Virus record (IMG/VR): IMGVR_UViG_2663763054_000010
Direction: 5' to 3' (one strand)
Origin: a virus
Lineage: Duplodnaviria; Heunggongvirae; Uroviricota; Caudoviricetes
DNA length: 16,969 bases
Shown in pieces: positions 1 to 16,969 of the stretch. The position numbers were made by a program, and so were the translations under genes. The notes under the pieces are model-generated. The model was not told the DNA's origin, ran no database searches, and saw only the letters and a list, made by a program, of their open reading frames with translations. The stretch's first letter is position 1. Every line of letters begins with the position of its first letter.

Positions 1-81
1 CAGCCTTCAGGGAAAAATATCATCAGATGGCTGCTTAAAAAAAGAACAAATGGTAGTGTCCGCTATTGCCAGTACACCTCA
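1..81 (+). mobile_element. IS3-family (IS600-like) element, right end only, cut by window start; carries the last 11 codons of orfB (3-38, ...AFREKYHQMAA, stop 36-38)
   Basis: 1-77 is the reverse complement of 12692-12770; element ends ...CCTCA at 81 (IS3-family TG...CA terminus). Confidence 0.75.
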
Positions 82-280
82 TCCATCACCGAAAAAAATT
101 GGCTTTTACACCATTGGCGATAAAAGCATTTACCTGTATGACCTACGCCGCATGGATGAAATCATGGAGGCTCTTGATAATCGTTCGTCGATGGATTGGT
201 GTGTTGCTGTTCATGATATGAATGCAGGGTTTGATGAAAAGATTTTGTTCCCCTCATCAGTTGAAAGCACTGCGGGTTAA
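50..280 (+). CDS. hypothetical protein; start uncertain because the ORF begins inside the IS end, so possibly 5'-truncated by the IS
   Basis: 76-aa ORF in track; ends just before the SD of the next ORF. Confidence 0.25.
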   Translation: MVVSAIASTPHPSPKKIGFYTIGDKSIYLYDLRRMDEIMEALDNRSSMDWCVAVHDMNAGFDEKILFPSSVESTAG

Positions 281-290
281 GGAGTAACAC

Positions 291-458
291 ATGACCACTA
301 TTACCAAAGAACGTATTGAATTGTTCATTAAAAACCCGCTTGAAAACGGGCTTACCCGTGGTGAACAAATGGAACTGGCACGGATTGCGCTGGCATCGCT
401 GGAAGCAGAGCCGGTTGTGTTCTGGTTTGAAAAATATCAAGAAGGGGCTACGGCATGA
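291..458 (+). CDS. small hypothetical prophage protein (55 aa, [12 protein letters not shown]...)
   Basis: AAGGAG 7 nt upstream of ATG 291; stop overlaps next start (ATGA at 455-458); below the ORF-track length cutoff. Confidence 0.45.
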
Positions 459-799
459 CGACTTTTACCAGAGAGCAGTTAATAGCTCACGCAGAGGAGA
501 CTATTGAAGCACAGAGACTGTGCATACCGGGCACAATCGACCATGACATCATCCGCACATATAAGATGGATATTGCTGTTCTGGAAATCGCACTGGTATC
601 GCTGGCAGCAGAGCCAGCCGGTAAATTGCATGAATACAAACCAGTGGGATATCAGCGTCTGGTCGATGAGTTAACCATGCTGGTAAAGCAGTTAACCTGG
701 CAACTGAGGAAAGCGAAGCCAGACTGCAAATTACCGGATAAGGCGATGAGTTATCTGGAGCGGAACGGACTGATAAGCGTGGAGGATATTTTACGATGA
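455..799 (+). CDS. hypothetical prophage protein (114 aa)
   Basis: ATG start, translationally coupled on both sides (ATGA overlaps); N-terminus [13 protein letters not shown] resembles ORF 5473-5715. Confidence 0.55.
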
Positions 800-879
800 C
801 CTGGCCTGAAGCATTAACAACGGTAGGAATTGCGATGGCGGTGGCGCTGGTGGTGTATTCGATTTGCCGCTGGGGATAA
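796..879 (+). CDS. small hydrophobic peptide (27 aa, [27 protein letters not shown])
   Basis: ATGA overlap with upstream stop; single predicted TM-like stretch. Confidence 0.3.
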
Positions 880-1090
880 AAACGGTTTGCGGGAAAAGGA
901 GAGTTAAGTAGAATTGCAGCGGGTGCTTGAGGCTATCTGTCTCAGGCATGAACACCAAAAGGCAGATAGAGAAAAGCCCCAGTTAACATTACGCGTCCGG
1001 CAAGACGCTTAACATTAATCTGAGGCTCAATCTATGAACGGCAAATCTAGGTTAGCCTCTTACGTGCCGAAAGGCAAGGAGAAGCAGGCT

Positions 1091-1246
1091 ATGAAGCAGC
1101 AAAAGGCGATGTTAATCGCCCTGATCGTCATCTGTTTAACCGTCATAGTGACGGCACTGGTAACGAGGAAAGACCTCTGCGAGGTACGAATTCGAACCGG
1201 CCAGACGGAGGTCGCTGTCTTCACAGCTTACGAACCTGAGGAGTAA
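1091..1246 (+). CDS. hokD: Hok/Gef-family type I toxin (51 aa), HokD/RelF-like
   Basis: MKQQKAMLIALIVICLTVIVTALVTRKDLCEVRIRTGQTEVAVFTAYEPEE matches Hok family architecture (TM helix + conserved C..R..G..EV.AF..YE); internal ATG of track ORF 1034-1246. Confidence 0.8.
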   Translation: MKQQKAMLIALIVICLTVIVTALVTRKDLCEVRIRTGQTEVAVFTAYEPEE

Positions 1247-1316
1247 GAGACCAGGCGGGGGAGAAATCCCTCGCCACCTCTGATGGGTCAGGCATCCTCA
1301 ATGCACCCACACTTAA

Positions 1317-1340
1317 CCCGCTTCGGCGGGTTTTTGTTTT
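1317..1340 (+). terminator. rho-independent terminator after hok (stem CCGC-UUCG-GCGG + T-tract)
   Basis: GC stem with UUCG tetraloop followed by TTTTTGTTTTT. Confidence 0.5.
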
Positions 1341-1466
1341 TATTTTCAACGCGTTTGAAGTTTTAGATGGTGCCGGAATAGAATCAAAAATACTTAAGTA
1401 GCGCGCAGGGAGAAGAGGGATGGACCCCGAACAGGGGAGTGCTATTTATCTGGAAGGATTCTGTTG

Positions 1467-1748
1467 ATGAAAATCGAAGAATTACGTGAAATTTTTAGTG
1501 AAGATGGCCTCTATACTGTGCGCGTTGAGAATGGCGCTATTGTCAGCCACTGCCTTCCAGACTACACAATTCTGATAATTCAGCCGTCTTTGCCAGCAGG
1601 CACGGGCGGCGCTCTCACGCATTTAAATCTGATTGGTACCAGCATCCCCCATGCACTGAAGAACAGGCCGAATGGCTCATTCAGTGTTACCGCAGGCGCG
1701 GATGCGAGGTTAAAAAAGCCCTTAGCCTCGACTACCGTCACTGGATAA
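1467..1748 (+). CDS. small prophage protein (93 aa); by position possibly Rem-like (recollection of Qin order hokD-rem-ydfU, not verified)
   Basis: ORF with ATG at 1467 (track starts at TTG 1464); identical copy at 7722-8003. Confidence 0.5.
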   Translation: MKIEELREIFSEDGLYTVRVENGAIVSHCLPDYTILIIQPSLPAGTGGALTHLNLIGTSIPHALKNRPNGSFSVTAGADARLKKPLASTTVTG

Positions 1749-1823
1749 TCTCCGTCAGGCTCCCTTACTCCGAACGGCCAACGCGTCCGTCCCGCACATT
1801 CCAGCAACGGATCTGGAGGTAAT

Positions 1824-2882
1824 GTGCGGGTATTACTTCGACCTGTTCTGGTACCGGAACTCGGTCTGGTTATCGTTAAGCCAGGCCGTGAATCAATGTC
1901 AGCATTCCATAACGGCAGAATACTGGTGGAGCCGGAACCAAAAAGCATGCGTAATCTGCCGTCCGGGGTCGTTCCTGCCGCTCGCCAGCCGCTGGTGGAA
2001 GACAAAACATTGCTGCCGTTTTTCAGTAACGCACGGGTGATTCGTGCTGCTGGTGGTGCTGGTGCATTGTCTGACTGGCTGTTGCGCCATATTAAATCCT
2101 GCCAGTGGCCACACGGCGATTATCATCACAGCGAAACCGTCATTCACCGTTATGGTACCGGCGCAATGGTGTTGTGCTGGCACTGCGACAACCAGCTGCG
2201 TGACCAGACATCCGAATCACTCGAGCAACTTGCTCATCAAAACCTGTCAGCATGGATGATTGACGTCATCGGTCACGCAATAAGCGGTACGCAGGAGCGT
2301 GAATTATCTCTGGCTGAATTATCCTGGTGGGCGGTCCGCAATCAGGTGGCGGACGCGCTACCGGAAGCGGTATTACGTCGTTCGCTGGGGTTGCGTGCGG
2401 AAAAAATTCGCTCTGTGTACAGTGAAAGCGACATCATACCGGGAGAGCAGACAGCCACCAGCATACTGAAGCAGCGCACAAAAAATATTGCGTTACTGCC
2501 TCACGTCCACCAGCAACAGAACCCACCACAGGAAAAGACGGTGGTCAGCATTGCCGTTGATCCGGAGTCACCGGCTCAGTATCTCCAGCGCCAGAAATCA
2601 CAACGGGAAGAGATGCCTGTATACACGCGCTGGGTAAAAACGCAGAAATGCATGACGTGTGGCAATCAGGCAGATGATCCGCATCACATCATTGGTCATG
2701 GACTGGGAGGGATGGGAACAAAGGCTGATGATTTGTTTGTTATTCCGTTATGCCGTAAATGCCGTAACGAACTACATGCCGGAGTAAAAGATTTTGAAGA
2801 GAAACACGGCAGTCAGCTGTTGTTGCTGATTCGTTTTTTAATGCACGCGAGAAATTCGGGTGTTCTGAAGTGGAAAGCATAA
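1824..2882 (+). CDS. YdfU-like (DUF968-type) prophage protein with C-terminal HNH-like zinc-finger nuclease motif
   Basis: GTG start 4 nt after GGAGG; C-terminus CMTCGNQADDPHHIIGHGLGG...PLCRKCRNELH (CxxC...HH...CxxC...H). Confidence 0.65.
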   Translation: MRVLLRPVLVPELGLVIVKPGRESMSAFHNGRILVEPEPKSMRNLPSGVVPAARQPLVEDKTLLPFFSNARVIRAAGGAGALSDWLLRHIKSCQWPHGDYHHSETVIHRYGTGAMVLCWHCDNQLRDQTSESLEQLAHQNLSAWMIDVIGHAISGTQERELSLAELSWWAVRNQVADALPEAVLRRSLGLRAEKIRSVYSESDIIPGEQTATSILKQRTKNIALLPHVHQQQNPPQEKTVVSIAVDPESPAQYLQRQKSQREEMPVYTRWVKTQKCMTCGNQADDPHHIIGHGLGGMGTKADDLFVIPLCRKCRNELHAGVKDFEEKHGSQLLLLIRFLMHARNSGVLKWKA

Positions 2883-3263
2883 ATGACCGAGCGCATAGAA
2901 TTTGTTTTACCTTACCCGCCGACGGTGAACACTTACTGGCGTCGTCGTGGCAGCACATATTTTGTATCAAAAGCCGGGGAGCGTTATCGCCGGGCAGTGG
3001 CGCTTATTGTTCGCCAGCAGCGGCTGAAATTAAGCCTGTCCGGAAGGTTGGCAATAAAAATTATTGCAGAACCACCGGATAAGCGCCGCCGTGACCTGGA
3101 CAATATTCTGAAAGCGCCGCTGGATGCGCTGACGCATGCGGGGTTGCTAATGGACGATGAGCAGTTTGATGAAATCAATATCGTTCGTGCTCAGCCAGTA
3201 TCTGGTGGACGTCTGGGGGTGAAGATTTATCCCATAATGCTTGAAGGGCAGGTCAAAAAATGA
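2883..3263 (+). CDS. rusA: RusA-family Holliday junction resolvase (variant a)
   Basis: ATG immediately after upstream TAA; RusA signature ...PPDKRRRDLDNILKAPLDALTHAGLLMDDEQ... Confidence 0.85.
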   Translation: MTERIEFVLPYPPTVNTYWRRRGSTYFVSKAGERYRRAVALIVRQQRLKLSLSGRLAIKIIAEPPDKRRRDLDNILKAPLDALTHAGLLMDDEQFDEINIVRAQPVSGGRLGVKIYPIMLEGQVKK

Positions 3264-4006
3264 AACTGGAAGATTTACCGAAATACTACTCCCCAAAATC
3301 CCCCGGCCTGACTGATGCATCGGCCTCAACGTCGAAAGATGCGCTGAGTATCACTGATGTGATGGCCGCGCAGGGCATGACACAGAATCGGGCTGAGATG
3401 GGGGTTTCTGCGTTCCTTGGGAAAATGGGCATTAGTATGAATGACAGAGAGCGGGCAACAGAATTGCTGACAGAATATGCACTCAGTCGGTGTGATCGCG
3501 TGGCGGCGTTAAGAAAACTCCCGGCAGAAATAAAACCGGCAGTGATGCGTATTATGGCTTCGTATGCGTTTGAAGATTATGCCCGTAGCGCGGCGAGCAA
3601 AAAACAGTGCCCCTGCTGTCACGGAAAAAAATTTATTGAAAGCGAGGTTTTTACAAACAAGATCCAGTATCCGGATGGTAAGCCGCCGGTATGGGCAAAG
3701 TGTACGAAAGGTGTGTATCCGTCTTACTGGGAAGAATGGAAAAAAGTCAGGGAGGTGGTAAAAGTTGCCTGTCCGGAGTGTGGCGGAAAGGGTGAGGTTT
3801 CCACCGCCTGTAAGGATTGCCGTGGGCGTGGTGTCGCCATTCATCGTGAAGAGTCGGTAAAACGTGGTATGCCTGTTATCAGAGACTGCCAGCGTTGTGG
3901 TGGTCGTGGCTATGAAAGACTACCATCAACGGAGGCATTTAATGCTATATGCGAGGTGACAAACCAGATAACACGCGCGTCATGGGAAAAAACAGTTAAG
4001 AAATTA
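3260..4006 (+). pseudogene. Q-like late antiterminator (variant a), 3' end replaced by IS2 after codon ~249; track ORF 3260-4093 has an IS-derived tail
   Basis: Identical to 9515-10261 then diverges at the IS2 terminus TGGATTTGCCCC (4007). Confidence 0.7.
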
Positions 4007-4017
4007 TGGATTTGCCC

Positions 4018-4923
4018 CTATATTTCCAGACATCTGTTATCACTTAACCCATTACAAGCCCGCTGCCGCAGATATTCCCGTGGCGAGCGATAACCCAGCG
4101 CACTATGCGGATGCCATTCGTTATAATGCTCGAACGCCTCTGCAAGGTTCTTTGCTGCCGTTAACCCGTCTGGTTTGGGCATGATACTGATGTAGTCACG
4201 CTTTATCGTTTTCACGAAGCTCTCTGCTATTCCGTTACTCTCCGGACTCCGCACCGCCGTGTTCTTCGGTTCAAGTCCCAACATCCGGGCGAACTGGCGT
4301 GTTTCATTAGCCCGGTAGCATGAACCATTATCCGTCAGCCACTCCACTGGAGACGACGGAAGATCGTTGCCGAAGCGGCGTTCCACCGCTCCCAGCATGA
4401 CGTCCTGTACTGTTTCACTGTTGAAGCCGCCGGTAGTCACCGCCCAGTGCAGTGCCTCACGATCACAGCAGTCCAGCGCGAACGTGACACGCAGTCTCTC
4501 TCCGTTATCACAGCAGAACTCGAACCCGTCAGAGCACCATCGCTGATTGCTTTCTTTCACGGCCACTCTGCCTGTATGTGCCCGTTTCGATGGCGGTACA
4601 GCAGGTTTTCGCTCAAGCAACAGCGCATTCTGGCGCATGATCCGGTAAACACGTTTGGCATTGATCGCAGGCATACCATCAAGTTCTGCCTGTCTGCGAA
4701 GCAGCGCCCATACCCGACGATAACCATACGTGGGCAGCTCTCCGATAACATGGTGTATACGGAGAAGCACATCCGTATCATCAGTGTGACGACTGCGGCG
4801 GCCATCCATCCAGTCATCGGTTCGTCTGAGAATGACGTGCAACTGCGCACGCGACACCCGGAGACAACGGCTGACTAAGCTTACTCCCCATCCCCGGGCA
4901 ATAAGGGCGCGTGCGCTATCCAC
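4018..4923 (-). CDS. insD: IS2 transposase OrfB (InsD), 301 aa
   Basis: Protein [34 protein letters not shown]... matches recalled IS2 InsD. Confidence 0.9.
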
Positions 4924-5246
4924 TTTTTTGCCCGTCCATATTCAACGGCTTCTTTGAGGAGTTCATTTTCCATCGTTTTCTTGCCGAGCAGGCGCTGGAG
5001 TTCTTTAATCTGCTTCATGGCGGCAGCAAGTTCAGAGGCAGGAACAACCTGTTCTCCGGCGGCGACAGCAGTAAGACTTCCTTCCTGGTATTGCTTACGC
5101 CAGAGAAATAACTGGCTGGCTGCTACACCATGTTGCCGGGCAACGAGGGAGACCGTCATCCCCGGTTCAAAGCTCTGCTGAACAATTGCGATCTTTTCCT
5201 GTGTGGTACGCCGTCTGCGTTTCTCCGGCCCTAAGACATCAATCAT
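4881..5246 (-). CDS. insC: IS2 OrfA (InsC), 121 aa
   Basis: [24 protein letters not shown]... from internal ATG of track ORF 4881-5291. Confidence 0.85.
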
Positions 5247-5472
5247 CTGTACTCCAATGACTAGTCTAAAAACTAGTATTAAGACTATCACTTATTTAAG
5301 TGATACTGGTTGTCTGGAGATTCAGGGGGCCAGTCTACGGACATTTTCTGCCTGTGGACCAGGAAAGTGCACGGGTGCTTTCCACTCCCATGAAGCCCGG
5401 CAATCCGCGCAGATACAGTAATAAACGAACTGACAGCAGTAAGATGGAGCGTTTCTTTTGAACAACCAGACA

Positions 5473-5715
5473 ATGACTTTTACCTCTGAACAATTGCGTA
5501 AACACGCGCAGGAAATGCTGCGTCATGCTGAACAACTCGAAAAAACGGGCATAACAAAAGACGCTATCCGTAAAGATATGGTACCCGCGCTTCGGGAACT
5601 GATGCAGGCGAAGCATCGCGCACAGAAAGCAGTAGATGAGCTGGTGGACTGTGTGGCAGAGCTGGAAACCAGAGTCGGAAAGTTTGAAAAACTGGTGCAG
5701 GAGGTGCTGCGCTGA
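5473..5715 (+). CDS. hypothetical prophage protein (~80 aa, MTFTSEQLRKHAQEM...)
   Basis: ATG at 5473 (track begins at TTG 5458); stop overlaps rusA start; paralog-like N-terminus shared with 455-799. Confidence 0.5.
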   Translation: MTFTSEQLRKHAQEMLRHAEQLEKTGITKDAIRKDMVPALRELMQAKHRAQKAVDELVDCVAELETRVGKFEKLVQEVLR

Positions 5716-6089
5716 TGCGCCATGAGTTTATTTTACCTTATCCGCCGACGGTGAATACTTACTGGCGACGTCGTGACAACACATATTTTGTATCAAAAGC
5801 CGGTGAGCGTTATCGCCGGGATGTGGCGCTTATTGTCCGTCAGCAGCGACTGAAATTAAGCCTGTCCGGAAGACTGGCGATAAAGATTATTGCAGAGCCA
5901 CCGGATAAGCGCCGTCGTGACCTGGACAATATCCTGAAAGCACCACTGGATGCACTGACACATGCGGGAGTGTTAATGGACGATGAGCAGTTTGATGAAA
6001 TCAATATCGTTCGTGCTCAGCCAGTATCTGGTGGACGTCTGGGGGTGAAGATTTACCCCATAATGCATGAAGAGCAGGTCAAAAAATGA
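5715..6089 (+). CDS. rusA: RusA-family Holliday junction resolvase (variant b)
   Basis: 124 aa, same signature as 2883-3263 but divergent N-terminus (MRHEFILPYPP). Confidence 0.85.
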   Translation: MRHEFILPYPPTVNTYWRRRDNTYFVSKAGERYRRDVALIVRQQRLKLSLSGRLAIKIIAEPPDKRRRDLDNILKAPLDALTHAGVLMDDEQFDEINIVRAQPVSGGRLGVKIYPIMHEEQVKK

Positions 6090-6907
6090 AACTGGAAGAT
6101 TTACCGAAATACTACTCCCCAAAATCCCCTTGCCTGACCGATGCATCGGCCTCAACGTCAAAAGATGCGCTGAGTATCACTGATGTGATGGCCGCGCAGG
6201 GCATGACACAGAATCGGGCTGAGATGGGGTTTTCTGCGTTCCTGGGGAAAATGGGCATCAGTATGAATGACAGGGCGCGGGCAACAGAATTACTGGCAGA
6301 TTATGCACTCAGTCGGTGCGATCGTGTGGCGGCGTTGAGAAAACTTCCGGCAGAAATAAAACCGGTAGTGATGCGCATTATGGCTTCGTACGCTTTTGAG
6401 GATTATGCCCGCAGCGCAGCGAGTAAAAAGCAGTGCCCTTGTTGCTATGGGGAAAAATTTATTGAAAGCGTAGTTTTTACAAACAAGGTCCAGTATCCGG
6501 ATGGTAAGCCGCCGGTATGGGCAAAGTGTACGAAAGGTGTGTATCCGTCTTACTGGGAAGAATGGAAAAAAGTCAGGGAGGTGGTAAAAGTTGCCTGTCC
6601 GGAGTGTGGCGGAAAGGGTGAGGTTTCCACCGCCTGTAAGGATTGCCGTGGGCGTGGTGTCGCCATTCATCGTGAAGAGTCGGTAAAACGTGGTATGCCT
6701 GTTATCAGAGACTGCCAGCGTTGTGGTGGTCGTGGCTATGAAAGACTACCATCAACGGAGGCATTTAATGCTATATGCGAGGTGACAAACCAGATAACAC
6801 GCGCGTCATGGGAAAAAACAGTTAAGAAATTTTATGATGCGCTGGTGACCCGGTTTGATATTGAAGAAGCATGGGCTGAGCGGCAGTTAAAAAAGGTAAC
6901 TAGGTAA
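6086..6907 (+). CDS. Q-like late antiterminator (variant b), 273 aa with CxxC zinc-finger repeats
   Basis: ATGA overlap with rusA; CPCC..CPECGGKG..CKDCRGRG..CQRCGGRG motifs; followed by promoter + short terminator (PR'/tR' layout). Confidence 0.65.
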   Translation: MKLEDLPKYYSPKSPCLTDASASTSKDALSITDVMAAQGMTQNRAEMGFSAFLGKMGISMNDRARATELLADYALSRCDRVAALRKLPAEIKPVVMRIMASYAFEDYARSAASKKQCPCCYGEKFIESVVFTNKVQYPDGKPPVWAKCTKGVYPSYWEEWKKVREVVKVACPECGGKGEVSTACKDCRGRGVAIHREESVKRGMPVIRDCQRCGGRGYERLPSTEAFNAICEVTNQITRASWEKTVKKFYDALVTRFDIEEAWAERQLKKVTR

Positions 6908-6912
6908 CAAGG

Positions 6913-6940
6913 TTGATTTTTCCGGAATCTGTGGTAAATT
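6913..6940 (+). promoter_or_regulatory. candidate late promoter PR' (TTGATT-16 nt-TAAATT) just downstream of Q
   Basis: sigma70-like hexamers; position matches lambdoid Q/qut/PR' organisation; copies at 10342-10369 and 14901-14928. Confidence 0.35.
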
Positions 6941-6989
6941 CGTCATAACGATGGGCGTTTTATGCCTGACGTTAGAAGAGTTTCTACAA

Positions 6990-7012
6990 CCCGCCGCCGA
7001 GCGGGTTTTTTA
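6990..7012 (+). terminator. tR'-like rho-independent terminator (CCCGC-loop-GCGGG + T6)
   Basis: GC-rich hairpin plus TTTTTT about 45-60 nt downstream of the candidate PR'. Confidence 0.6.
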
Positions 7013-7131
7013 TGACTGAAATCGCGTCAGTACAGTAAACGCGCTGGTGGCGGTGAATACCTGTCTTTCAGCTTGCTGGCTTTTTCGACAAGAGTTATTG
7101 GTGTGTCACGTTAACCGGAAAAGGAAAAGAC

Positions 7132-7329
7132 ATGCTAAAACAGCAGGATATGACAGAAACCGCCAGAGTGGTGTTTAATGAATTAAGCGTTACCGAACCG
7201 GCGACAGTCGGGGAGATAGCGCAGAATACTTACCTTTCACGCGAACGCTGCCAGTTAATACTGACCCAGCTGGTTATGGCGGGTCTGGCAGACTATCAGT
7301 TCGGTTGTTACAGACGCCTTCCGCAGTGA
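7132..7329 (+). CDS. small protein (65 aa), possibly helix-turn-helix-like (weak guess)
   Basis: AAAGGAAAAG RBS before ATG; stop inside terminator hairpin; identical copy at 10561-10758. Confidence 0.45.
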   Translation: MLKQQDMTETARVVFNELSVTEPATVGEIAQNTYLSRERCQLILTQLVMAGLADYQFGCYRRLPQ

Positions 7330-7340
7330 AGGCTTTTTTA
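7316..7340 (+). terminator. rho-independent terminator (GCCTTC-loop-GAAGGC + T6)
   Basis: Perfect 6-bp stem followed by TTTTTT; copy at 10745-10769. Confidence 0.55.
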
Positions 7341-7479
7341 TTTGTGGTAAATGGGCGGCTGGTGGGTGTTAGGGGCACCCACCAGCCATCTGCTCATGCG
7401 TTGGGTTCACAAGCAAACCTCAGGCCCACTGCTTTGCGCAAAAGCAGAATGAGCCTATCAGAGACAGGCTTAATGATCC

Positions 7480-7585
7480 ATGCTTAATACTGTAAAAATA
7501 TCCAGTTGTGAGTTAATCAACGCCGACTGCCTGGAATTTATCCGGTCGTTACCCGAAAATTCTGTTGACCTGATAGTCACGGACC
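7480..7585 (+). pseudogene. 5' fragment (first 35 codons) of the DPPY DNA methyltransferase, cut at a duplication junction
   Basis: Identical to 10909-11014 then switches at 7586 to sequence identical to 1332 onward. Confidence 0.75.
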
Positions 7586-7721
7586 ATTTTGTTTTTATTT
7601 TCAACGCGTTTGAAGTTTTAGATGGTGCCGGAATAGAATCAAAAATACTTAAGTAGCGCGCAGGGAGAAGAGGGATGGACCCCGAACAGGGGAGTGCTAT
7701 TTATCTGGAAGGATTCTGTTG

Positions 7722-8003
7722 ATGAAAATCGAAGAATTACGTGAAATTTTTAGTGAAGATGGCCTCTATACTGTGCGCGTTGAGAATGGCGCTATTGTCA
7801 GCCACTGCCTTCCAGACTACACAATTCTGATAATTCAGCCGTCTTTGCCAGCAGGCACGGGCGGCGCTCTCACGCATTTAAATCTGATTGGTACCAGCAT
7901 CCCCCATGCACTGAAGAACAGGCCGAATGGCTCATTCAGTGTTACCGCAGGCGCGGATGCGAGGTTAAAAAAGCCCTTAGCCTCGACTACCGTCACTGGA
8001 TAA
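7722..8003 (+). CDS. small prophage protein, copy of 1467-1748
   Basis: Identical protein. Confidence 0.5.
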   Translation: MKIEELREIFSEDGLYTVRVENGAIVSHCLPDYTILIIQPSLPAGTGGALTHLNLIGTSIPHALKNRPNGSFSVTAGADARLKKPLASTTVTG

Positions 8004-8078
8004 TCTCCGTCAGGCTCCCTTACTCCGAACGGCCAACGCGTCCGTCCCGCACATTCCAGCAACGGATCTGGAGGTAAT

Positions 8079-9137
8079 GTGCGGGTATTACTTCGACCTG
8101 TTCTGGTACCGGAACTCGGTCTGGTTATCGTTAAGCCAGGCCGTGAATCAATGTCAGCATTCCATAACGGCAGAATACTGGTGGAGCCGGAACCAAAAAG
8201 CATGCGTAATCTGCCGTCCGGGGTCGTTCCTGCCGCTCGCCAGCCGCTGGTGGAAGACAAAACATTGCTGCCGTTTTTCAGTAACGCACGGGTGATTCGT
8301 GCTGCTGGTGGTGCTGGTGCATTGTCTGACTGGCTGTTGCGCCATATTAAATCCTGCCAGTGGCCACACGGCGATTATCATCACAGCGAAACCGTCATTC
8401 ACCGTTATGGTACCGGCGCAATGGTGTTGTGCTGGCACTGCGACAACCAGCTGCGTGACCAGACATCCGAATCACTCGAGCAACTTGCTCATCAAAACCT
8501 GTCAGCATGGATGATTGACGTCATCGGTCACGCAATAAGCGGTACGCAGGAGCGTGAATTATCTCTGGCTGAATTATCCTGGTGGGCGGTCCGCAATCAG
8601 GTGGCGGACGCGCTACCGGAAGCGGTATTACGTCGTTCGCTGGGGTTGCGTGCGGAAAAAATTCGCTCTGTGTACAGTGAAAGCGACATCATACCGGGAG
8701 AGCAGACAGCCACCAGCATACTGAAGCAGCGCACAAAAAATATTGCGTTACTGCCTCACGTCCACCAGCAACAGAACCCACCACAGGAAAAGACGGTGGT
8801 CAGCATTGCCGTTGATCCGGAGTCACCGGCTCAGTATCTCCAGCGCCAGAAATCACAACGGGAAGAGATGCCTGTATACACGCGCTGGGTAAAAACGCAG
8901 AAATGCATGACGTGTGGCAATCAGGCAGATGATCCGCATCACATCATTGGTCATGGACTGGGAGGGATGGGAACAAAGGCTGATGATTTGTTTGTTATTC
9001 CGTTATGCCGTAAATGCCGTAACGAACTACATGCCGGAGTAAAAGATTTTGAAGAGAAACACGGCAGTCAGCTGTTGTTGCTGATTCGTTTTTTAATGCA
9101 CGCGAGAAATTCGGGTGTTCTGAAGTGGAAAGCATAA
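8079..9137 (+). CDS. YdfU-like protein with HNH-like motif, copy of 1824-2882
   Basis: Identical protein. Confidence 0.65.
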   Translation: MRVLLRPVLVPELGLVIVKPGRESMSAFHNGRILVEPEPKSMRNLPSGVVPAARQPLVEDKTLLPFFSNARVIRAAGGAGALSDWLLRHIKSCQWPHGDYHHSETVIHRYGTGAMVLCWHCDNQLRDQTSESLEQLAHQNLSAWMIDVIGHAISGTQERELSLAELSWWAVRNQVADALPEAVLRRSLGLRAEKIRSVYSESDIIPGEQTATSILKQRTKNIALLPHVHQQQNPPQEKTVVSIAVDPESPAQYLQRQKSQREEMPVYTRWVKTQKCMTCGNQADDPHHIIGHGLGGMGTKADDLFVIPLCRKCRNELHAGVKDFEEKHGSQLLLLIRFLMHARNSGVLKWKA

Positions 9138-9518
9138 ATGACCGAGCGCATAGAATTTGTTTTACCTTACCCGCCGACGGTGAACACTTACTGGCGTCGT
9201 CGTGGCAGCACATATTTTGTATCAAAAGCCGGGGAGCGTTATCGCCGGGCAGTGGCGCTTATTGTTCGCCAGCAGCGGCTGAAATTAAGCCTGTCCGGAA
9301 GGTTGGCAATAAAAATTATTGCAGAACCACCGGATAAGCGCCGCCGTGACCTGGACAATATTCTGAAAGCGCCGCTGGATGCGCTGACGCATGCGGGGTT
9401 GCTAATGGACGATGAGCAGTTTGATGAAATCAATATCGTTCGTGCTCAGCCAGTATCTGGTGGACGTCTGGGGGTGAAGATTTATCCCATAATGCTTGAA
9501 GGGCAGGTCAAAAAATGA
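9138..9518 (+). CDS. rusA: RusA-family resolvase (variant a), second copy
   Basis: Identical to 2883-3263. Confidence 0.85.
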   Translation: MTERIEFVLPYPPTVNTYWRRRGSTYFVSKAGERYRRAVALIVRQQRLKLSLSGRLAIKIIAEPPDKRRRDLDNILKAPLDALTHAGLLMDDEQFDEINIVRAQPVSGGRLGVKIYPIMLEGQVKK

Positions 9519-10336
9519 AACTGGAAGATTTACCGAAATACTACTCCCCAAAATCCCCCGGCCTGACTGATGCATCGGCCTCAACGTCGAAAGATGCGCT
9601 GAGTATCACTGATGTGATGGCCGCGCAGGGCATGACACAGAATCGGGCTGAGATGGGGGTTTCTGCGTTCCTTGGGAAAATGGGCATTAGTATGAATGAC
9701 AGAGAGCGGGCAACAGAATTGCTGACAGAATATGCACTCAGTCGGTGTGATCGCGTGGCGGCGTTAAGAAAACTCCCGGCAGAAATAAAACCGGCAGTGA
9801 TGCGTATTATGGCTTCGTATGCGTTTGAAGATTATGCCCGTAGCGCGGCGAGCAAAAAACAGTGCCCCTGCTGTCACGGAAAAAAATTTATTGAAAGCGA
9901 GGTTTTTACAAACAAGATCCAGTATCCGGATGGTAAGCCGCCGGTATGGGCAAAGTGTACGAAAGGTGTGTATCCGTCTTACTGGGAAGAATGGAAAAAA
10001 GTCAGGGAGGTGGTAAAAGTTGCCTGTCCGGAGTGTGGCGGAAAGGGTGAGGTTTCCACCGCCTGTAAGGATTGCCGTGGGCGTGGTGTCGCCATTCATC
10101 GTGAAGAGTCGGTAAAACGTGGTATGCCTGTTATCAGAGACTGCCAGCGTTGTGGTGGTCGTGGCTATGAAAGACTACCATCAACGGAGGCATTTAATGC
10201 TATATGCGAGGTGACAAACCAGATAACACGCGCGTCATGGGAAAAAACAGTTAAGAAATTTTATGATGCGCTGGTGACCCGGTTTGATATTGAAGAAGCA
10301 TGGGCTGAGCGGCAGTTAAAAAAGGTAACTAGGTAA
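9515..10336 (+). CDS. Q-like late antiterminator (variant a), intact 273 aa
   Basis: Same as 3260-4006 then continues with the native C-terminus ...KKFYDALVTRFDIEEAWAERQLKKVTR. Confidence 0.65.
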   Translation: MKLEDLPKYYSPKSPGLTDASASTSKDALSITDVMAAQGMTQNRAEMGVSAFLGKMGISMNDRERATELLTEYALSRCDRVAALRKLPAEIKPAVMRIMASYAFEDYARSAASKKQCPCCHGKKFIESEVFTNKIQYPDGKPPVWAKCTKGVYPSYWEEWKKVREVVKVACPECGGKGEVSTACKDCRGRGVAIHREESVKRGMPVIRDCQRCGGRGYERLPSTEAFNAICEVTNQITRASWEKTVKKFYDALVTRFDIEEAWAERQLKKVTR

Positions 10337-10418
10337 CAAGGTTGATTTTTCCGGAATCTGTGGTAAATTCGTCATAACGATGGGCGTTTTATGCCTGACG
10401 TTAGAAGAGTTTCTACAA

Positions 10419-10441
10419 CCCGCCGCCGAGCGGGTTTTTTA
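10419..10441 (+). terminator. tR'-like terminator (copy of 6990-7012)
   Basis: Same hairpin + T-tract. Confidence 0.6.
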
Positions 10442-10560
10442 TGACTGAAATCGCGTCAGTACAGTAAACGCGCTGGTGGCGGTGAATACCTGTCTTTCAG
10501 CTTGCTGGCTTTTTCGACAAGAGTTATTGGTGTGTCACGTTAACCGGAAAAGGAAAAGAC

Positions 10561-10758
10561 ATGCTAAAACAGCAGGATATGACAGAAACCGCCAGAGTGG
10601 TGTTTAATGAATTAAGCGTTACCGAACCGGCGACAGTCGGGGAGATAGCGCAGAATACTTACCTTTCACGCGAACGCTGCCAGTTAATACTGACCCAGCT
10701 GGTTATGGCGGGTCTGGCAGACTATCAGTTCGGTTGTTACAGACGCCTTCCGCAGTGA
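10561..10758 (+). CDS. small protein, copy of 7132-7329
   Basis: Identical protein. Confidence 0.45.
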   Translation: MLKQQDMTETARVVFNELSVTEPATVGEIAQNTYLSRERCQLILTQLVMAGLADYQFGCYRRLPQ

Positions 10759-10908
10759 AGGCTTTTTTATTTGTGGTAAATGGGCGGCTGGTGGGTGTTA
10801 GGGGCACCCACCAGCCATCTGCTCATGCGTTGGGTTCACAAGCAAACCTCAGGCCCACTGCTTTGCGCAAAAGCAGAATGAGCCTATCAGAGACAGGCTT
10901 AATGATCC

Positions 10909-11967
10909 ATGCTTAATACTGTAAAAATATCCAGTTGTGAGTTAATCAACGCCGACTGCCTGGAATTTATCCGGTCGTTACCCGAAAATTCTGTTGACCT
11001 GATAGTCACGGACCCGCCGTACTTTAAAGTGAAGCCTGAGGGCTGGGATAACCAGTGGAAGGGCGACGATGATTACCTGAAGTGGCTGGACCAGTGTCTG
11101 GCGCAGTTCTGGCGGGTGCTGAAACCTGCCGGAAGTCTTTACCTGTTCTGTGGTCATCGCCTGGCATCTGATATCGAAATCATGATGCGTGAACGCTTCA
11201 GTGTGCTGAACCATATTATCTGGGCGAAGCCGTCCGGACGCTGGAACGGATGCAACAAGGAAAGCCTGCGGGCGTATTTCCCCGCCACAGAGCGCATTCT
11301 GTTCGCGGAACATTATCAGGGGCCGTATCGTCCGAAAGATGCCGGGTATGCGGCGAAGGGCAGTGCACTGAAACAGCATGTGATGGCCCCGCTGATTTCT
11401 TACTTTCGTGATGCGCGAGCTGCCCTGGGGATAACGGCAAAACAGATTGCAGATGCCACAGGAAAGAAAAACATGGTGTCGCACTGGTTCAGTGCCGGTC
11501 AGTGGCAGTTGCCGAATGAAAGCGATTATCTGAAATTACAGGCGCTGTTTGCCCGGGTGGCAGAAGAGAAGCATCGGCGTGGTGAACTGGAAAAGCTCCA
11601 CCACCAGCTGGTGGATACGTATACCTCACTGAACCGGCAGTATGCGGAGCTGCTGAGTGAATATAAACATCTGCGGCGGTATTTTGGCGTGACGGTGCAG
11701 GTGCCGTATACCGATGTGTGGACGCATAAACCGGTGCAGTTCTATCCCGGGAAACATCCGTGCGAAAAACCGGCAGAAATGCTGCAGCAGATAATCAGCG
11801 CTAGCAGTCGTCCGGGTGACCTGATTGCAGATTTTTTCATGGGGTTGGGTTCGACAGTGAAAGCGGCACTGGCGCTCGGGCGTCGTGCAATTGGCGTTGA
11901 GCTGGAGACTGAACGTTTTGAGCAGACGGTTCGGGAAGTACAGGATTTAGTCAGCCAGAACGGATGA
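10909..11967 (+). CDS. DNA methyltransferase, DPPY (N6-adenine/N4-cytosine) type with beta-class motif order; no cognate endonuclease seen (orphan)
   Basis: Motif IV DLIVTDPPYF near N-terminus, motif I DLIADFFMGLGST near C-terminus. Confidence 0.8.
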   Translation: MLNTVKISSCELINADCLEFIRSLPENSVDLIVTDPPYFKVKPEGWDNQWKGDDDYLKWLDQCLAQFWRVLKPAGSLYLFCGHRLASDIEIMMRERFSVLNHIIWAKPSGRWNGCNKESLRAYFPATERILFAEHYQGPYRPKDAGYAAKGSALKQHVMAPLISYFRDARAALGITAKQIADATGKKNMVSHWFSAGQWQLPNESDYLKLQALFARVAEEKHRRGELEKLHHQLVDTYTSLNRQYAELLSEYKHLRRYFGVTVQVPYTDVWTHKPVQFYPGKHPCEKPAEMLQQIISASSRPGDLIADFFMGLGSTVKAALALGRRAIGVELETERFEQTVREVQDLVSQNG

Positions 11968-12007
11968 TATTGAAGAATTAATTACGCGTCGTTATTATGC
12001 GGCTCCC

Positions 12008-12083
12008 GGCCCTTTAGCTCAGTGGTGAGAGCGAGCGACTCATAATCGCCAGGTCGCTGGTTCAAATCCAGCAAGGGCCACCA
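12008..12083 (+). tRNA. tRNA with CAU anticodon, tRNA-Ile2 (lysidine) type, ileX/ileZ-like
   Basis: Cloverleaf: acceptor GGCCCTT/AAGGGCC, anticodon loop CTCATAA, T-loop TTCAAAT, CCA end. Confidence 0.85.
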
Positions 12084-12090
12084 TCACATA

Positions 12091-12167
12091 CCGCCATTAG
12101 CTCATCAGGAAAGAGCGCCAGCCTTCGAAGCTGGCTGCGCGGGGTTCAAGTCCCCGATGGCGGTCCA
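12091..12167 (+). tRNA. tRNA-Arg, anticodon UCG as read
   Basis: Acceptor CCGCCAT/ATGGCGG, anticodon stem CCAGC/GCTGG with loop CTTCGAA, T-loop TTCAAGT, CCA end. Confidence 0.75.
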
Positions 12168-12180
12168 TTATCTGCATCAT

Positions 12181-12257
12181 GCGTTGTTAGCTCAGCCGGA
12201 CAGAGCAATTGCCTTCTAAGCAATCGGTCACTGGTTCGAATCCAGTACAACGCGCCA
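12181..12257 (+). tRNA. tRNA-Arg, anticodon UCU (reads rare AGA)
   Basis: Acceptor GCGTTGT/ACAACGC, anticodon loop CTTCTAA, T-loop TTCGAAT, CCA end. Confidence 0.85.
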
Positions 12258-12271
12258 CACTTATTTTCCCA

Positions 12272-12300
12272 GGCTCGCTTTTGCGGGCCTTTTTTTTAAA
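12272..12300 (+). terminator. rho-independent terminator after tRNA cluster
   Basis: AGGCTCGC-TTTT-GCGGGCCT stem (one mismatch) followed by T8. Confidence 0.5.
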
Positions 12301-12514
12301 TGTCTCACAATTCAGACGGTTGACAGTTGTCTGTTTTGCGGGGAGTTTGTTAAAAGAAACTGGCATGGTGAATCCCCCTGTGCGGAGGGGCAATCAGCGA
12401 GTAGGTATATGGGATAATCGCGGATTCAGGTGCTGGTACTGAATTCACCGGGAGGCACCCGGCATCATGCAATGGCACATAGCGCCACTCTCCAGCCCTC
12501 TCCGGAGGGGCTTT
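12293..12514 (+). other. conserved ~215-bp structured non-coding element, copy 1; candidate sRNA or leader ending in a hairpin
   Basis: Near-identical to 15947-16170; several GC stems; no ORF conserved between copies. Confidence 0.3.
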
Positions 12515-12744
12515 TCTGTGCCGGATACATCACAGTTTCTGGAACCTTAGGTACTACAGTATCAGTCAGGGTGCTATATTTTCAGATGTGATGAAAGCCT
12601 GTCAGCAGGCAGGGCGTATCGGAAATGACCCAGTAGAGAAAACGTTGACTCAGATACCGGTGCTGAGTTACCGGGAAACCGGCATCACATGACCGCTATC
12701 CTGAGGTGTACTGGCAATAGCGGACACTACCATTTGTTCTTTTT

Positions 12745-13563
12745 TTAAGCAGCCATCTGATGATATTTTTCCCTGAAGGCTGCCGGGGAGATATTCCCCA
12801 GACGAGAGTGACGACGCTGACGATTGTAGAAAATCTCAATGTATTCCCGTATTACTGAGATGGCTTCATCCCGGTTATTAAAACGATAGTGGCTCAGGCT
12901 CTCATTTTTCAGCGTTCCCCAGAAGCTTTCCATCGGAGCGTTGTCGTAACAGTTACCTTTACGCGACATTGATGTTTTCAGACCAGACTGCTCCTGTATG
13001 ACCCGGTAATCGTATGCGCAGTACTGTGAACCTCGATCAGAGTGGTGGATTAGCCCGGCAGGTGGGCGCTGGCTCCTGAGCGCCATAAACAGGGCTTTAC
13101 CTGTCAGCTCTTTTGTCATGCGCTCTCCCATGGCGTAGCCGACAATTTCGCACGTATAAACATCTTTGATGCCAGCGAGGTACAACCATCCCTCCTGTGT
13201 GGCAACATACGTCAGGTCCGCCACCCAGACCTGATTTGGTGCTGTAGGAGCGAACGTCTGGTTCAGCAGATTTGGCGCAACTGGCAGATTGTGGTTCGAG
13301 TTCGTAGTCGCTCTGAACTTGCGTTTCTGCTTACAGCGTAGCCTTAGCTCCTTACGAAGACGTGCCAGTCGGTCACGACCAACGATGATGCCATTCTCTG
13401 CCAGCTCCGTCTGGAGCCGCCGGGTTCCATATGTTTCGCGAGTGCGGATATGTGCCACCTTAATCTCCAGTTTTAGCCGCTCATCACTTTGTTTTCTGTC
13501 TGAGGGTTCATGCTGTACCCAGTTGTAATAACCGCTCCTGGATACACCAAATACCTGACACAT
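12745..13563 (-). CDS. IS3-family transposase OrfB (DDE integrase-like), 272 aa from first in-frame Met
   Basis: Recalled IS3-family OrfB features; normally expressed as an OrfAB frameshift fusion. Confidence 0.85.
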   Translation of the reverse strand: MCQVFGVSRSGYYNWVQHEPSDRKQSDERLKLEIKVAHIRTRETYGTRRLQTELAENGIIVGRDRLARLRKELRLRCKQKRKFRATTNSNHNLPVAPNLLNQTFAPTAPNQVWVADLTYVATQEGWLYLAGIKDVYTCEIVGYAMGERMTKELTGKALFMALRSQRPPAGLIHHSDRGSQYCAYDYRVIQEQSGLKTSMSRKGNCYDNAPMESFWGTLKNESLSHYRFNNRDEAISVIREYIEIFYNRQRRHSRLGNISPAAFREKYHQMAA

Positions 13564-13598
13564 CGCTTCAATGGGAAATTGTTGTCGCCATTGTTCGA

Positions 13599-13842
13599 TT
13601 AACGCGTATTTTTCAGCGACTCCTGTGCAAAATACGCTGTTGCTTTTTTTAATATATCTCGCTCAAGGCGAGCTTCATTTAACGCCTTACGCAGTTGCAG
13701 AATTTCAGATTCCAGTTCAGCCACCGTGCGGGAACCAGGAGTACCGAGCCCTTTTCTGGCGGCGGTAACCCATTGTCCTAAAGTGCCTTCAGGAAGAGAT
13801 AATCGGGAAGCGCCTTCACTGATCGAAAGTTGATTTTCAAAG
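13599..13842 (-). pseudogene. IS3-family OrfA, C-terminal part only (...ENQLSISEGASRLSLPEG...ILKKATAYFAQESLKNTR)
   Basis: Track ORF 13599-14000 is chimeric: 3' part is orfA, 5' part is antisense rusA. Confidence 0.7.
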
Positions 13843-14084
13843 CGACTGAAATTAAGCCTGTCCGGAAGACTGGCGATAAAGATTATTGCAGAGCCACCGG
13901 ATAAGCGCCGTCGTGACCTGGACAATATCCTGAAAGCACCACTGGATGCACTGACACATGCGGGAGTGTTAATGGACGATGAGCAGTTTGATGAAATCAA
14001 TATCGTTCGTGGTCAGCCAGTATCTGGTGGACGTCTGGGGGTGAAGATTTACCCCATAATGCATGAAGAGCAGGTCAAAAAATG
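13843..14084 (+). pseudogene. rusA: rusA (variant b) 3' fragment, lacking about the first 44 codons
   Basis: Matches 5848-6089 with one substitution (RAQPV to RGQPV); upstream replaced by the IS. Confidence 0.8.
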
Positions 14085-14936
14085 AAACTGGAAGATTTAC
14101 CGAAATACTACTCCCCAAAATCCCCTTGCCTGACCGATGCATCGGCCTCAACGTCAAAAGATGCGCTGAGTATCACTGATGTGATGGCCGCGCAGGGCAT
14201 GACACAGAATCGGGCTGAGATGGGGTTTTCTGCGTTCCTGGGGAAAATGGGCATCAGTATGAATGACAGGGCGCGGGCAACAGAATTACTGGCAGATTAT
14301 GCACTCAGTCGGTGCGATCGTGTGGCGGCGTTGAGAAAACTTCCGGCAGAAATAAAACCGGTAGTGATGCGCATTATGGCTTCGTACGCTTTTGAGGATT
14401 ATGCCCGCAGCGCAGCGAGTAAAAAGCAGTGCCCTTGTTGCTATGGGGAAAAATTTATTGAAAGCGTAGTTTTTACAAACAAGGTCCAGTATCCGGATGG
14501 TAAGCCGCCGGTATGGGCAAAGTGTACGAAAGGTGTGTATCCGTCTTACTGGGAAGAATGGAAAAAAGTCAGGGAGGTGGTAAAAGTTGCCTGTCCGGAG
14601 TGTGGCGGAAAGGGTGAGGTTTCCACCGCCTGTAAGGATTGCCGTGGGCGTGGTGTCGCCATTCATCGTGAAGAGTCGGTAAAACGTGGTATGCCTGTTA
14701 TCAGAGACTGCCAGCGTTGTGGTGGTCGTGGCTATGAAAGACTACCATCAACGGAGGCATTTAATGCTATATGCGAGGTGACAAACCAGATAACACGCGC
14801 GTCATGGGAAAAAACAGTTAAGAAATTCTATGATGCGCTGGTGACTCGGTTTGATATTGAAGAAGCATGGGCTGAGCGGCAGTTAAAAAAGGTAACTAGG
14901 TTGATTTTTCCGGAATCTGTGGTAAATTCGTCATAA
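14082..14936 (+). CDS. Q-like late antiterminator (variant b), 284 aa; an 8-bp deletion removes the normal stop and adds an 11-aa tail
   Basis: Same as 6086-6907 apart from a few substitutions; ...AGGTAACTAGGTAACAAGGTTG becomes AGGTAACTAGGTTG; ORF runs through the PR' -35/-10. Confidence 0.6.
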   Translation: MKLEDLPKYYSPKSPCLTDASASTSKDALSITDVMAAQGMTQNRAEMGFSAFLGKMGISMNDRARATELLADYALSRCDRVAALRKLPAEIKPVVMRIMASYAFEDYARSAASKKQCPCCYGEKFIESVVFTNKVQYPDGKPPVWAKCTKGVYPSYWEEWKKVREVVKVACPECGGKGEVSTACKDCRGRGVAIHREESVKRGMPVIRDCQRCGGRGYERLPSTEAFNAICEVTNQITRASWEKTVKKFYDALVTRFDIEEAWAERQLKKVTRLIFPESVVNSS

Positions 14937-14977
14937 CTATGGGCGTTTTATGCCTGACGTTAGAAGAGTTTCTACAA

Positions 14978-15000
14978 CCCGCCGCCGAGCGGGTTTTTTA
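14978..15000 (+). terminator. tR'-like terminator (third copy)
   Basis: CCCGC-loop-GCGGG + T6. Confidence 0.6.
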
Positions 15001-15038
15001 TTGCGGAATTAATTACGGACCGTTATTATTCTGCTCCC

Positions 15039-15114
15039 GGCCCTTTAGCTCAGTGGTGAGAGCGAGCGACTCATAATCGCCAGGTCGCTGGTTCAAATCC
15101 AGCAAGGGCCACCA
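15039..15114 (+). tRNA. tRNA (CAU), Ile2-type, second copy
   Basis: Identical to 12008-12083. Confidence 0.85.
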
Positions 15115-15121
15115 TCACAAA

Positions 15122-15201
15122 CCGCCATTAGCTTATCAGGAAGAGCAGACGACACGATAACAGGGTTGTTGGTGCGGGGGCGGGTCCCCGATGGCGGTCC
15201 A
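15122..15201 (+). pseudogene. degenerate tRNA (tRNA-Arg-like ends, anticodon arm and T-loop disrupted)
   Basis: Acceptor and D-arm as in 12091-12167, but the middle has no anticodon stem and the T-loop is GCGGGT. Confidence 0.55.
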
Positions 15202-15214
15202 TTATCGGTATTCA

Positions 15215-15291
15215 GCGTTGTTAGCTCAGCCGGACAGAGCAATTGCCTTCTAAGCAATCGGTCACTGGTTCGAATCCAGTACAGCGCGCCA
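15215..15291 (+). tRNA. tRNA-Arg (UCU), second copy, with one acceptor-stem change giving a U-G pair
   Basis: Same as 12181-12257 except ACAGCGC for ACAACGC. Confidence 0.8.
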
Positions 15292-15401
15292 TATTCATTC
15301 TTCCAGATTCCTTCCGGCAGAGCCTTATACTGAAATATACCTGGCTCAGGATATTGTTGAAAATATTTTATGTTTGTCAAAAATAAAAGTTCTGTTAAGT
15401 A

Positions 15402-15755: not shown

Positions 15756-15946
15756 ATACATATCTGGATTATCACCTGTTACGGTAAAAAGTGATTGCTT
15801 ACTGTTTTTGTGAATGGCATTGCAGCAGCCGGATAATGTCAGTGCTGGCTGACGGTGTGCTGGTGGCGGGTGTGGTGGTTGTTGCTTTCCCGTTGCTGAA
15901 AAAGAAAACGCCAGACTGTTAGCCGGGTATCAGTTAGCGGGAGAAA

Positions 15947-16170: not shown

Positions 16171-16202
16171 TATATTGATTTTGTCAGATGTGAGTAAACT
16201 CC

Positions 16203-16925: not shown

Positions 16926-16969
16926 TGAGGTGTACTGGCAATAGCGGACACTACCATTTGTTCTTTTTT
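16926..16969 (-). mobile_element. IS3-family (IS600-like) element, right end only, cut by window end
   Basis: TGAGGTGTACTGGCAATAGCGGACACTACCATTTGTTCTTTTTT identical to 12692-12735. Confidence 0.75.

Follow-up and report, generated by a model that had tools for sequence, protein, structure and literature searches.

Genes and features of the window

The window, by which we mean the whole 16,969-bp stretch that was analysed, is the complete contig CXFM01000154.1 of draft assembly GCA_001247155.1 (L033), and the gene layouts of the two are identical; a look-up of an 85-aa ORF with a private P10S change leads to this record. It holds lambdoid prophage late-regulatory sequence and is not plasmid-borne: a plasmid leading region, which the hok gene might suggest, is ruled out, the matches being lambdoid prophage genes on chromosomes. 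The source isolate is Shigella sonnei-like and its assembly a short-read draft. The window is a scaffold of four pieces (c1–c4) chained across unclosed gaps. Pieces c1 and c3 map to one interval of the lambdoid prophage remnant adjoining ompW (the a-locus), and c4 and the start of c2 to a second remnant, the b-locus, ∼670 kb away.

1–4005, plus strand: piece c1, left part of the a-locus remnant; identity to S. sonnei CP104423.1 (L023, 6742–10746) is 100% over 4005 bp
1–81: IS600 end, in c1, which also contains small phage ORFs
1034/1091–1246: hok-family toxin, in c1
1315–1345: terminator hairpin after the hok-family gene (terminator-like site 1315–1332 plus T-run), in c1
Between the terminator and DUF968: Rem-like ORF, in c1 and again in c3
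1332–4005, plus strand: copy A of the exact repeat, tail of c1; maps to L023 8073–10746
1824–2882 (c1) and 8079–9137 (c3): DUF968 (Pfam)
2883–3263 (c1) and 9138–9518 (c3): RusA
From 3260, truncated at 4005 (c1), and 9515–10336 (c3): Q antiterminator
4006: single-N scaffold gap, A in the window; fits neither parent (Q has T, the native IS2 flank C)
4007–7585, plus strand: piece c2, itself chimeric, with a b-locus start and an a-locus end
4007–5337, minus strand: IS2, 1331 bp, in c2
5458–5715: 85-aa ORF carrying a private P10S change, in c2, preceded by the helicase 3′ end
5715–6089: RusA b-allele, in c2
7132–7329: orf65, in c2; also in c3
7480–7585: methyltransferase, first 35 codons only, in c2
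7586: single-N scaffold gap at the supposed duplication junction, A in the window; differs from both the methyltransferase (C) and the hok-terminator context (T)
7587–13839, plus strand: piece c3, the a-locus again from the terminator T-tract; 99.95% identical to L023 8073–14325
7587–10260, plus strand: copy B of the exact repeat, head of c3; maps to the same L023 8073–10746
10909–11967: full DNA methyltransferase (Pfam PF01555), in c3
12008–12257: tRNAs, in c3
From 12702: IS600, 1138 bp, in c3
13840: single-N scaffold gap, likewise A in the window
13841–16969, plus strand: piece c4, from the right side of the b-locus; identity to S. sonnei CP019689.1 (L017, 9760–12888) is 100% over 3129 bp
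14082–14936: Q of 284 aa, in c4, preceded by the 3′ part of the RusA b-allele; tRNAs are also in c4
16203–16538, minus strand: iraM-like gene, in c4
16926–16969: IS600 start, in c4

An exact repeat whose junctions are single Ns

Pairwise comparison within the window aligns 1332–4005 with 7587–10260 over 2674 bp with zero mismatches, which bears out the exact ∼2.67-kb repeat described in an earlier note on this DNA; the ends given there, 4006 and 10261, each overshoot by one base, since the copies differ there (A at 4006, T at 10261). The surroundings of the copies had also been read correctly: copy B is flanked on its left by codon 35 of the methyltransferase (an N6/N4 DNA methyltransferase ORF starting at 7480), copy B itself opens in the hok-terminator T-tract (terminator-like site 1315–1332 and its T-run), and copy A is followed by the 1331-bp IS2.

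Across the 15,715 bases that we compared with the public record, the window differs at only three positions, 4006, 7586, and 13840. At each of these CXFM01000154.1 has N and the window has A, and the window contains no N at all. The three N positions are exactly the three non-homologous junctions of the window. Because the public record has N there, the A at each junction is a gap placeholder and not a determined base, and the idea of a template-switching signature, with A as an untemplated base at the three joints, is superseded. The repeat is thus real as text, while its two defining junctions are unclosed scaffold gaps. As to whether reads cross 7585/7586, which the earlier note had made its test, the deposited N in effect supplies the answer that none do, because the assembler could not join both sides.

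Searches for the joints agree in their outcome. No sequence spanning 7585/7587 was found in 5,426 complete E. coli genomes, PLSDB, the GTDB species representatives, or JGI metagenomes; neither IS2 joint had a match among the 5,426 complete E. coli genomes, nor did the Q/IS2 joint in the GTDB representatives. Exact-protein look-ups of the chimeric ORFs 7480–7656 and 3260–4093, and of variants of the IS600 orfA′, returned no match; the true products carry X wherever a codon contains N, and their TTG starts are rendered as L, which explains this outcome.

The IS2 copy gives a further view of the left joint. In its native b-locus setting, the helicase gene, IS2 has a CGGAC target duplication on both sides, but in the window the element has no 5-bp target-site duplication, its left flank being AAATT plus N and its right flank CGGAC. 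An insertion of IS2 into Q would call for such a duplication, and the CGGAC flank is native to the b-locus helicase gene. We also rejected the extra A at 4006 as the one-base spacer of an IS2 minicircle junction: such a spacer is a feature of the opposite end of IS2, and the target duplication around the native copy is clean.

Two prophage remnants in Shigella sonnei

The a-locus runs in the order IS600, hok, DUF968, RusA, Q, orf65, methyltransferase, tRNAs, IS600, and is single-copy in all ten complete S. sonnei chromosomes among the matches listed, out of 91 index blocks with a longest carrying contig of >1 Mb. Both repeat copies map to the same interval, 8073–10746, of one such chromosome, CP104423.1. 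The b-locus consists of IS2 in the helicase gene, the 85-aa ORF, RusA, a Q of 284 aa, tRNA, iraM, and IS600. Most likely, the real genome carries two lambdoid remnants that share a 94–100% identical rusA–Q segment. In gene order and sequence, this Stx-phage-like late-regulatory module agrees with intact E. coli prophages (96%, TUM10008) and with the ompW-adjacent S. sonnei remnant (100%), but the module occurs once per prophage in those genomes and twice here only through the scaffold.

Piece c2 joins the two remnants internally. Its segments 4007–5135 and 5179–7013 match the b-locus at L017 5904–7032 and 9093–10920, respectively; relative to the a-allele, all 68 differences of c2 fall within 5721–6488, and 6489–7585 is identical to 9918–11014. 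The Q gene in c2 switches from b-allele to a-allele inside a 343-bp identical stretch, 6489–6831, and c4 overlaps c2 at 5845–6831 with one mismatch. The resulting a/b hybrid Q is uninformative as a marker of real recombination, its 273-aa protein being a common allele (7,505 index blocks).

The window's layout also lends itself to description as a tandem array, 7587–11014 being exactly 1332–4005 plus 6832–7585. A real duplication would have as its unit 3,428 bp, running from the T-tract of the hok terminator as far as codon 35 of the methyltransferase, duplicated by illegitimate recombination; IS2 and recombination with the second remnant would then have reshaped its first copy, and one base at each joint would have gone unread. 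Such a layout is what RecA-mediated deletion between the identical 343-bp repeats 3663–4005 and 6489–6831 would be expected to leave, and S. sonnei is rich in recombining IS elements and prophage remnants. On paper, the window has in common with tandem duplications and IS-mediated adjacent rearrangements a duplication-type joint (7585/7587) and an IS2-terminus joint that lacks a target duplication. Both of these joints, however, are N, and the native IS2 has its normal CGGAC duplication in the true locus. The copies are not a head-to-tail pair free of foreign sequence, since IS2 and 1.5 kb from the distant remnant lie inside the supposed first copy, and a sequenced novel joint is absent, its base being N and the collections searched holding no match. 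All three non-homologous joints are N, where spanning reads would have closed a true joint. Starting from the arrangement in complete genomes, some five to seven separate events would be needed, including the uniting of loci 670 kb apart; we could set out a stepwise chain (translocation, unequal crossover in the 343-bp repeat, two deletions, tandem duplication, and repeat-mediated deletion) that is possible on paper, but no complete genome read holds an intermediate. We consider a real tandem duplication very unlikely.

We judge equally improbable a complex local rearrangement in the isolate that copied part of one remnant, IS2 included, into the other and added a 3.4-kb tandem duplication, with nothing but the joint bases escaping the assembler. 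Such a rearrangement, if true, could stem from a single replication accident with multiple template switches. In favour of both this and a real duplication, the chaining of the pieces implies that the scaffolder found read pairs connecting them.

Sister drafts

In a sister draft, L034 (GCA_001254135.1), the pieces follow one another as in the window, but the single Ns lie elsewhere, at window-equivalents 3651|4507 and 6831|8338, so that the overlap there amounts to a 1,569-bp ‘duplication’. The breakpoints are thus not reproduced between the two assemblies, which also argues against a real duplication. Three further sister drafts show no duplication: L037, of the same lineage, has a plain b-locus, and L035 and L036 have the b-to-a chimera, in a gap-free contig where b-type rusA is followed by the 3′ end of a-type Q, then by orf65 and the complete methyltransferase.

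These drafts bear on a reading in which the piece order is correct: a real b-locus segment would lie within the a-locus through an insertion or a template-switch rearrangement that was imperfectly assembled, and the repeat would reflect over-extension at true gaps. Two assemblies, L033 and L034, independently give a-left, IS2 with the b-segment, and a-right, and the gap-free contigs of L035 and L036 carry the b-to-a passage. Yet the switch falls inside the 343-bp stretch identical in both loci, a classic site for a short-read graph crossover; the plain b-locus of L037 comes from the same lineage; no joint is sequenced; and the same greedy pipeline would repeat a false join in sister isolates, given its description in PMC5320598. 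We regard this reading as extremely unlikely.

A scaffolding and gap-filling artefact

Both copies lie on one single-copy reference interval, the joints are Ns, and the gaps are shifted in the sister draft; we therefore conclude, with a probability of about 0.94, that the duplication is a scaffolding and gap-filling artefact of the short-read draft. The earlier note had offered either at least two events or a chimeric assembly; chimeric assembly is the half that stands, and ‘at least two events’ finds no support in the sequence.

What follows on the programs used and on the succession of their steps is our inference. Read pairs in the shared rusA–Q segment and in the IS copies would have led the scaffolder to place c2, from the b-locus, between c1 and c3 of the a-locus, and to chain another b-locus piece, c4, after c3. 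A gap filler would then have extended every piece end into the gaps one base at a time. Because c1 and c3 really adjoin, their extended ends would have regenerated the same 2,674 bp twice. The gaps would never have closed, leaving one N per joint (4006, 7586, and 13840), and these Ns would have been changed to A during preparation of the window. A gap that has been fully extended but not closed would be left as one N by programs of this kind.

The accession series and the single-N pattern suggest that Velvet, SSPACE, and GapFiller were used for this record. The pipeline behind 299 public S. sonnei assemblies (mean 405 contigs) is described as Velvet, SSPACE, and 120 rounds of GapFiller, tools that its own authors describe as greedy and liable to make false joins (PMC5320598). 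According to its description in PMC3446322, GapFiller grows both gap edges base by base, settles ambiguous bases by a majority-vote ratio of 0.7, and requires an overlap of at least 10 nt between the two extensions for closure. The window resembles artefacts of the SSPACE/GapFiller type in its single Ns between pieces, in piece ends at repeat boundaries and ambiguous bases, in unique sequence rebuilt on either side of a wrongly placed piece, and in gaps that shift in a sister assembly. It differs in the length of the extension, >2 kb (∼2.7 kb), which exceeds the usual paired-end gap estimate and needs many iterations.

Three of the piece ends, 4005, 4007, and 13839, lie at points where an extension by single bases would be expected to stop. 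The two Q alleles agree up to position 4005, after which the a-locus has T and the b-locus C; 4007 is the first IS2 base; and 13839 lies one base before a G/A site among IS600 copies. Biology does not predict this coincidence with ambiguous bases between repeat copies, a further point against a real duplication. The ends at 7585, 7587, and 13841 have no obvious ambiguous base, which counts against the gap-filling account.

Implications

The finding matters only as a lesson in quality control. Ns silently turned to A made unresolved joins resemble sequenced junctions with an untemplated base. When draft assemblies are scanned, Ns should be retained or marked, and an exact repeat of kilobase length with its end at an N should be read as overlapping contigs. 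The duplication is not a real feature, and knowledge of Shigella lambdoid remnants and IS elements is unchanged.

Repeats in the window and gaps in the deposited record

Pairwise comparison within the window showed that 1332-4005 and 7587-10260 are identical throughout their 2,674 bp, and chance cannot account for an exact repeat this long. The earlier note had delimited this block as 1332-4006 and 7587-10261; the description holds except at its right end, which was placed one base too far (A at 4006, T at 10261). Two additional repeat pairs are present: 5717-7585 with 9146-11014 (96.4% identity), in which all 68 differences fall within 5721-6488 whereas the stretch 6489-7585 matches 9918-11014 exactly, and 5845-7013 with 13841-15001 (99% identity).

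An exact look-up of the 85-aa protein with its private P10S change led to the deposited counterpart of the window, CXFM01000154.1 of GCA_001247155.1, which has an identical length (16,969) and arrangement of genes. It differs from the window at 3 of the 15,715 bases compared, namely 4006, 7586, and 13840; each of these is deposited as N but reads A in the window, where no N is found at all. It follows that the window is a scaffold in which single-N gaps separate four pieces (1-4005, 4007-7585, 7587-13839, and 13841-16969), and that its "duplication" is the 2,674 bp common to the tail of the first piece and the head of the third, not a real feature. It seems that A was substituted for these ambiguous bases during preparation of the window. 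Exact-protein look-ups of the chimeric ORFs of the window gave no match, because the recorded products contain an unknown residue.

Two prophage remnants of Shigella sonnei

On the evidence of Pfam and annotated relatives, the region is the late-regulatory part of lambdoid prophages, and a plasmid origin is ruled out on the same grounds. The gene order of the module is hok-family toxin and terminator, Rem-like ORF, DUF968, RusA, antiterminator Q, 65-aa ORF, N6/N4 DNA methyltransferase, and tRNAs. Insertion sequences occupy the following positions:

4007-5337: IS2, 1,331 bp
1-81, 12702-13839, and 16926-16969: IS600 sequence

Exact-protein look-ups assigned the two types of rusA-Q segment in the window to two distinct loci in complete Shigella sonnei chromosomes, ∼670 kb apart in CP104423.1. 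The first, here the a-locus, adjoins ompW and carries IS600, hok, DUF968, RusA (126 aa), Q (273 aa), orf65, the methyltransferase, and IS600; the b-locus carries, in order, an IS2 interrupted by an IS21-family element, a helicase 3' end, an 85-aa ORF, RusA (124 aa), Q (284 aa), iraM, and IS600.

Correspondence of window segments to the a-locus of CP104423.1 (L023) and the b-locus of CP019689.1 (L017), with identity
1-4005: a-locus, L023 6742-10746, 100%
4007-5135: b-locus, L017 5904-7032, 100%
5179-7013: b-locus, L017 9093-10920, 99.2%
7587-13840: a-locus, L023 8073-14325, 99.95%
13841-16969: b-locus, L017 9760-12888, 100%

From left to right the loci thus run a, b, a, a, b, and the tail of the first piece and the head of the third share one reference interval for the 2,674 bp. 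One locus switch falls in 6489-6831, 343 bp that are identical between the two loci; the other three (4006, 7586, and 13840) show no homology. The A at 4006 matches neither parent (T in Q, C in the native IS2 flank), nor does the A at 7586 (C in the methyltransferase, T in the terminator context). Because the native b-locus IS2 copy has a normal CGGAC target duplication, the Q/IS2 joint in the window is not an insertion site. Position 4005 is the final base preceding the first Q-allele difference after the shared stretch, and 13839 the final base preceding a site at which IS600 copies carry either G or A. Piece ends at such positions are expected from extension one base at a time that halts wherever the next base is ambiguous; biology does not predict them.

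Both remnants contain a tRNA cluster, at 12008-12257 (CAT, TCG, and TCT anticodons) and 15039-15291 (CAT and TCT). Stx-type phages likewise have a tRNA cluster downstream of Q, but in the window neither cluster is followed by toxin genes. The hairpin of the hok terminator (window 1316-1336) occurs twice in E. coli TUM10008, at L001 3517-3537 and 5352-5372, bracketing a 1.8-kb insert with two extra genes, an arrangement suggesting that modules of these phages recurrently have a boundary at this terminator. NZ_CP065613.1 (FDAARGOS_944), labelled E. coli, looks Shigella-like, since it has a b-type prophage (99.6% identity) with IS600 in the helicase gene.

Sister assemblies and origin of the joints

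The private allele of the window recurs in sister drafts of its accession series. One of them, GCA_001254135.1, has the piece order of the window with single Ns at window-equivalents 3651|4507 and 6831|8338, so that its "duplication" is 1,569 bp. Two others (L035 and L036) run in a gap-free contig from b-type rusA to the 3' end of an a-type Q, followed by orf65 and the entire methyltransferase gene, and another (L037) is a plain b-locus. Breakpoints that shift in this way between assemblies are a property of the assembly, not of the genome. A real insertion of a b-segment into the a-locus, with over-extension only at true gaps, would draw on the piece order common to two of these drafts; this supports it only weakly, since one and the same pipeline repeats its errors on near-identical genomes, and we regard such an insertion as extremely improbable. 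A real tandem duplication, remodelled afterwards, can be drawn on paper, 7587-11014 being exactly 1332-4005 plus 6832-7585, but from the complete-genome arrangement it requires ∼5-7 events and has neither a sequenced joint nor an observed intermediate, making it very unlikely.

Misassembly most likely proceeded as follows. Read pairs located in IS copies and in the rusA-Q segment common to both loci would have led to a b-locus piece being placed between two a-locus pieces. The edges of the pieces would then have grown into the gaps; being true neighbours, both a-locus edges would have rebuilt one sequence. Each gap would have ended as one N because none could be closed, these programs leaving an unclosed, fully extended gap as one N. 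Programs of this kind have been used on this species: as described in PMC5320598, 299 public S. sonnei assemblies (mean 405 contigs) passed from Velvet to SSPACE and then through 120 rounds of GapFiller, the pipeline's own authors noting there that SSPACE and GapFiller are greedy and that false joins are possible. GapFiller, in the account of its algorithm in PMC3446322, grows one base at a time from both gap edges, resolves ambiguous bases by a majority threshold of 0.7, and closes a gap only if the two extensions share at least 10 nt of overlap and agree with the size estimated for that gap.

Private bases and allelic variants

Two bases of the second piece, 5485 and 6016, differ from the native b-locus. 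The T at 5485 causes a private change, P10S, in the 85-aa ORF (5458-5715) that is common to the sister drafts. The C at 6016 yields G101A in RusA, an a-locus allele within b-type context that is also found in GCA_001254135.1 and absent from L035, L040, and L042; it may reflect mixing of a-locus and b-locus reads in the consensus, or a small gene conversion. Just past the tRNA cluster, 12271 is a private A, determined in the record rather than N, where 10 of 10 complete S. sonnei a-loci have T.

The b-locus Q (14082-14936) lacks 8 bp of the other allele (equivalent to 6902-6909), giving a 284-aa product with an altered C-terminus. This exact protein is listed for 1,407 index blocks, and for 90 of these the longest contig with it is over 1 Mb; the frameshifted antiterminator is thus fixed in S. 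sonnei. The IS600 T7 run at 13638-13644 (A7 on the coding strand) has seven residues in most copies among the fetched loci and six in a few, and appears to be the site of programmed frameshifting in this IS3-family element. The b-locus IS2 (5904-9252 in L013-L017) carries an IS21-family insert of ∼2 kb in each of the four complete S. sonnei loci that were aligned with the window. The IS2 of the window (4007-5337) is intact; in a short-read draft, this copy probably represents a consensus drawn from other IS2 copies.

Implications

The underlying loci are ordinary S. sonnei prophage remnants that have been sequenced before. The useful outcome is procedural: conversion of N to A in window preparation disguised scaffold gaps as junctions, and at other sites the same replacement can likewise produce spurious junctions and point differences.
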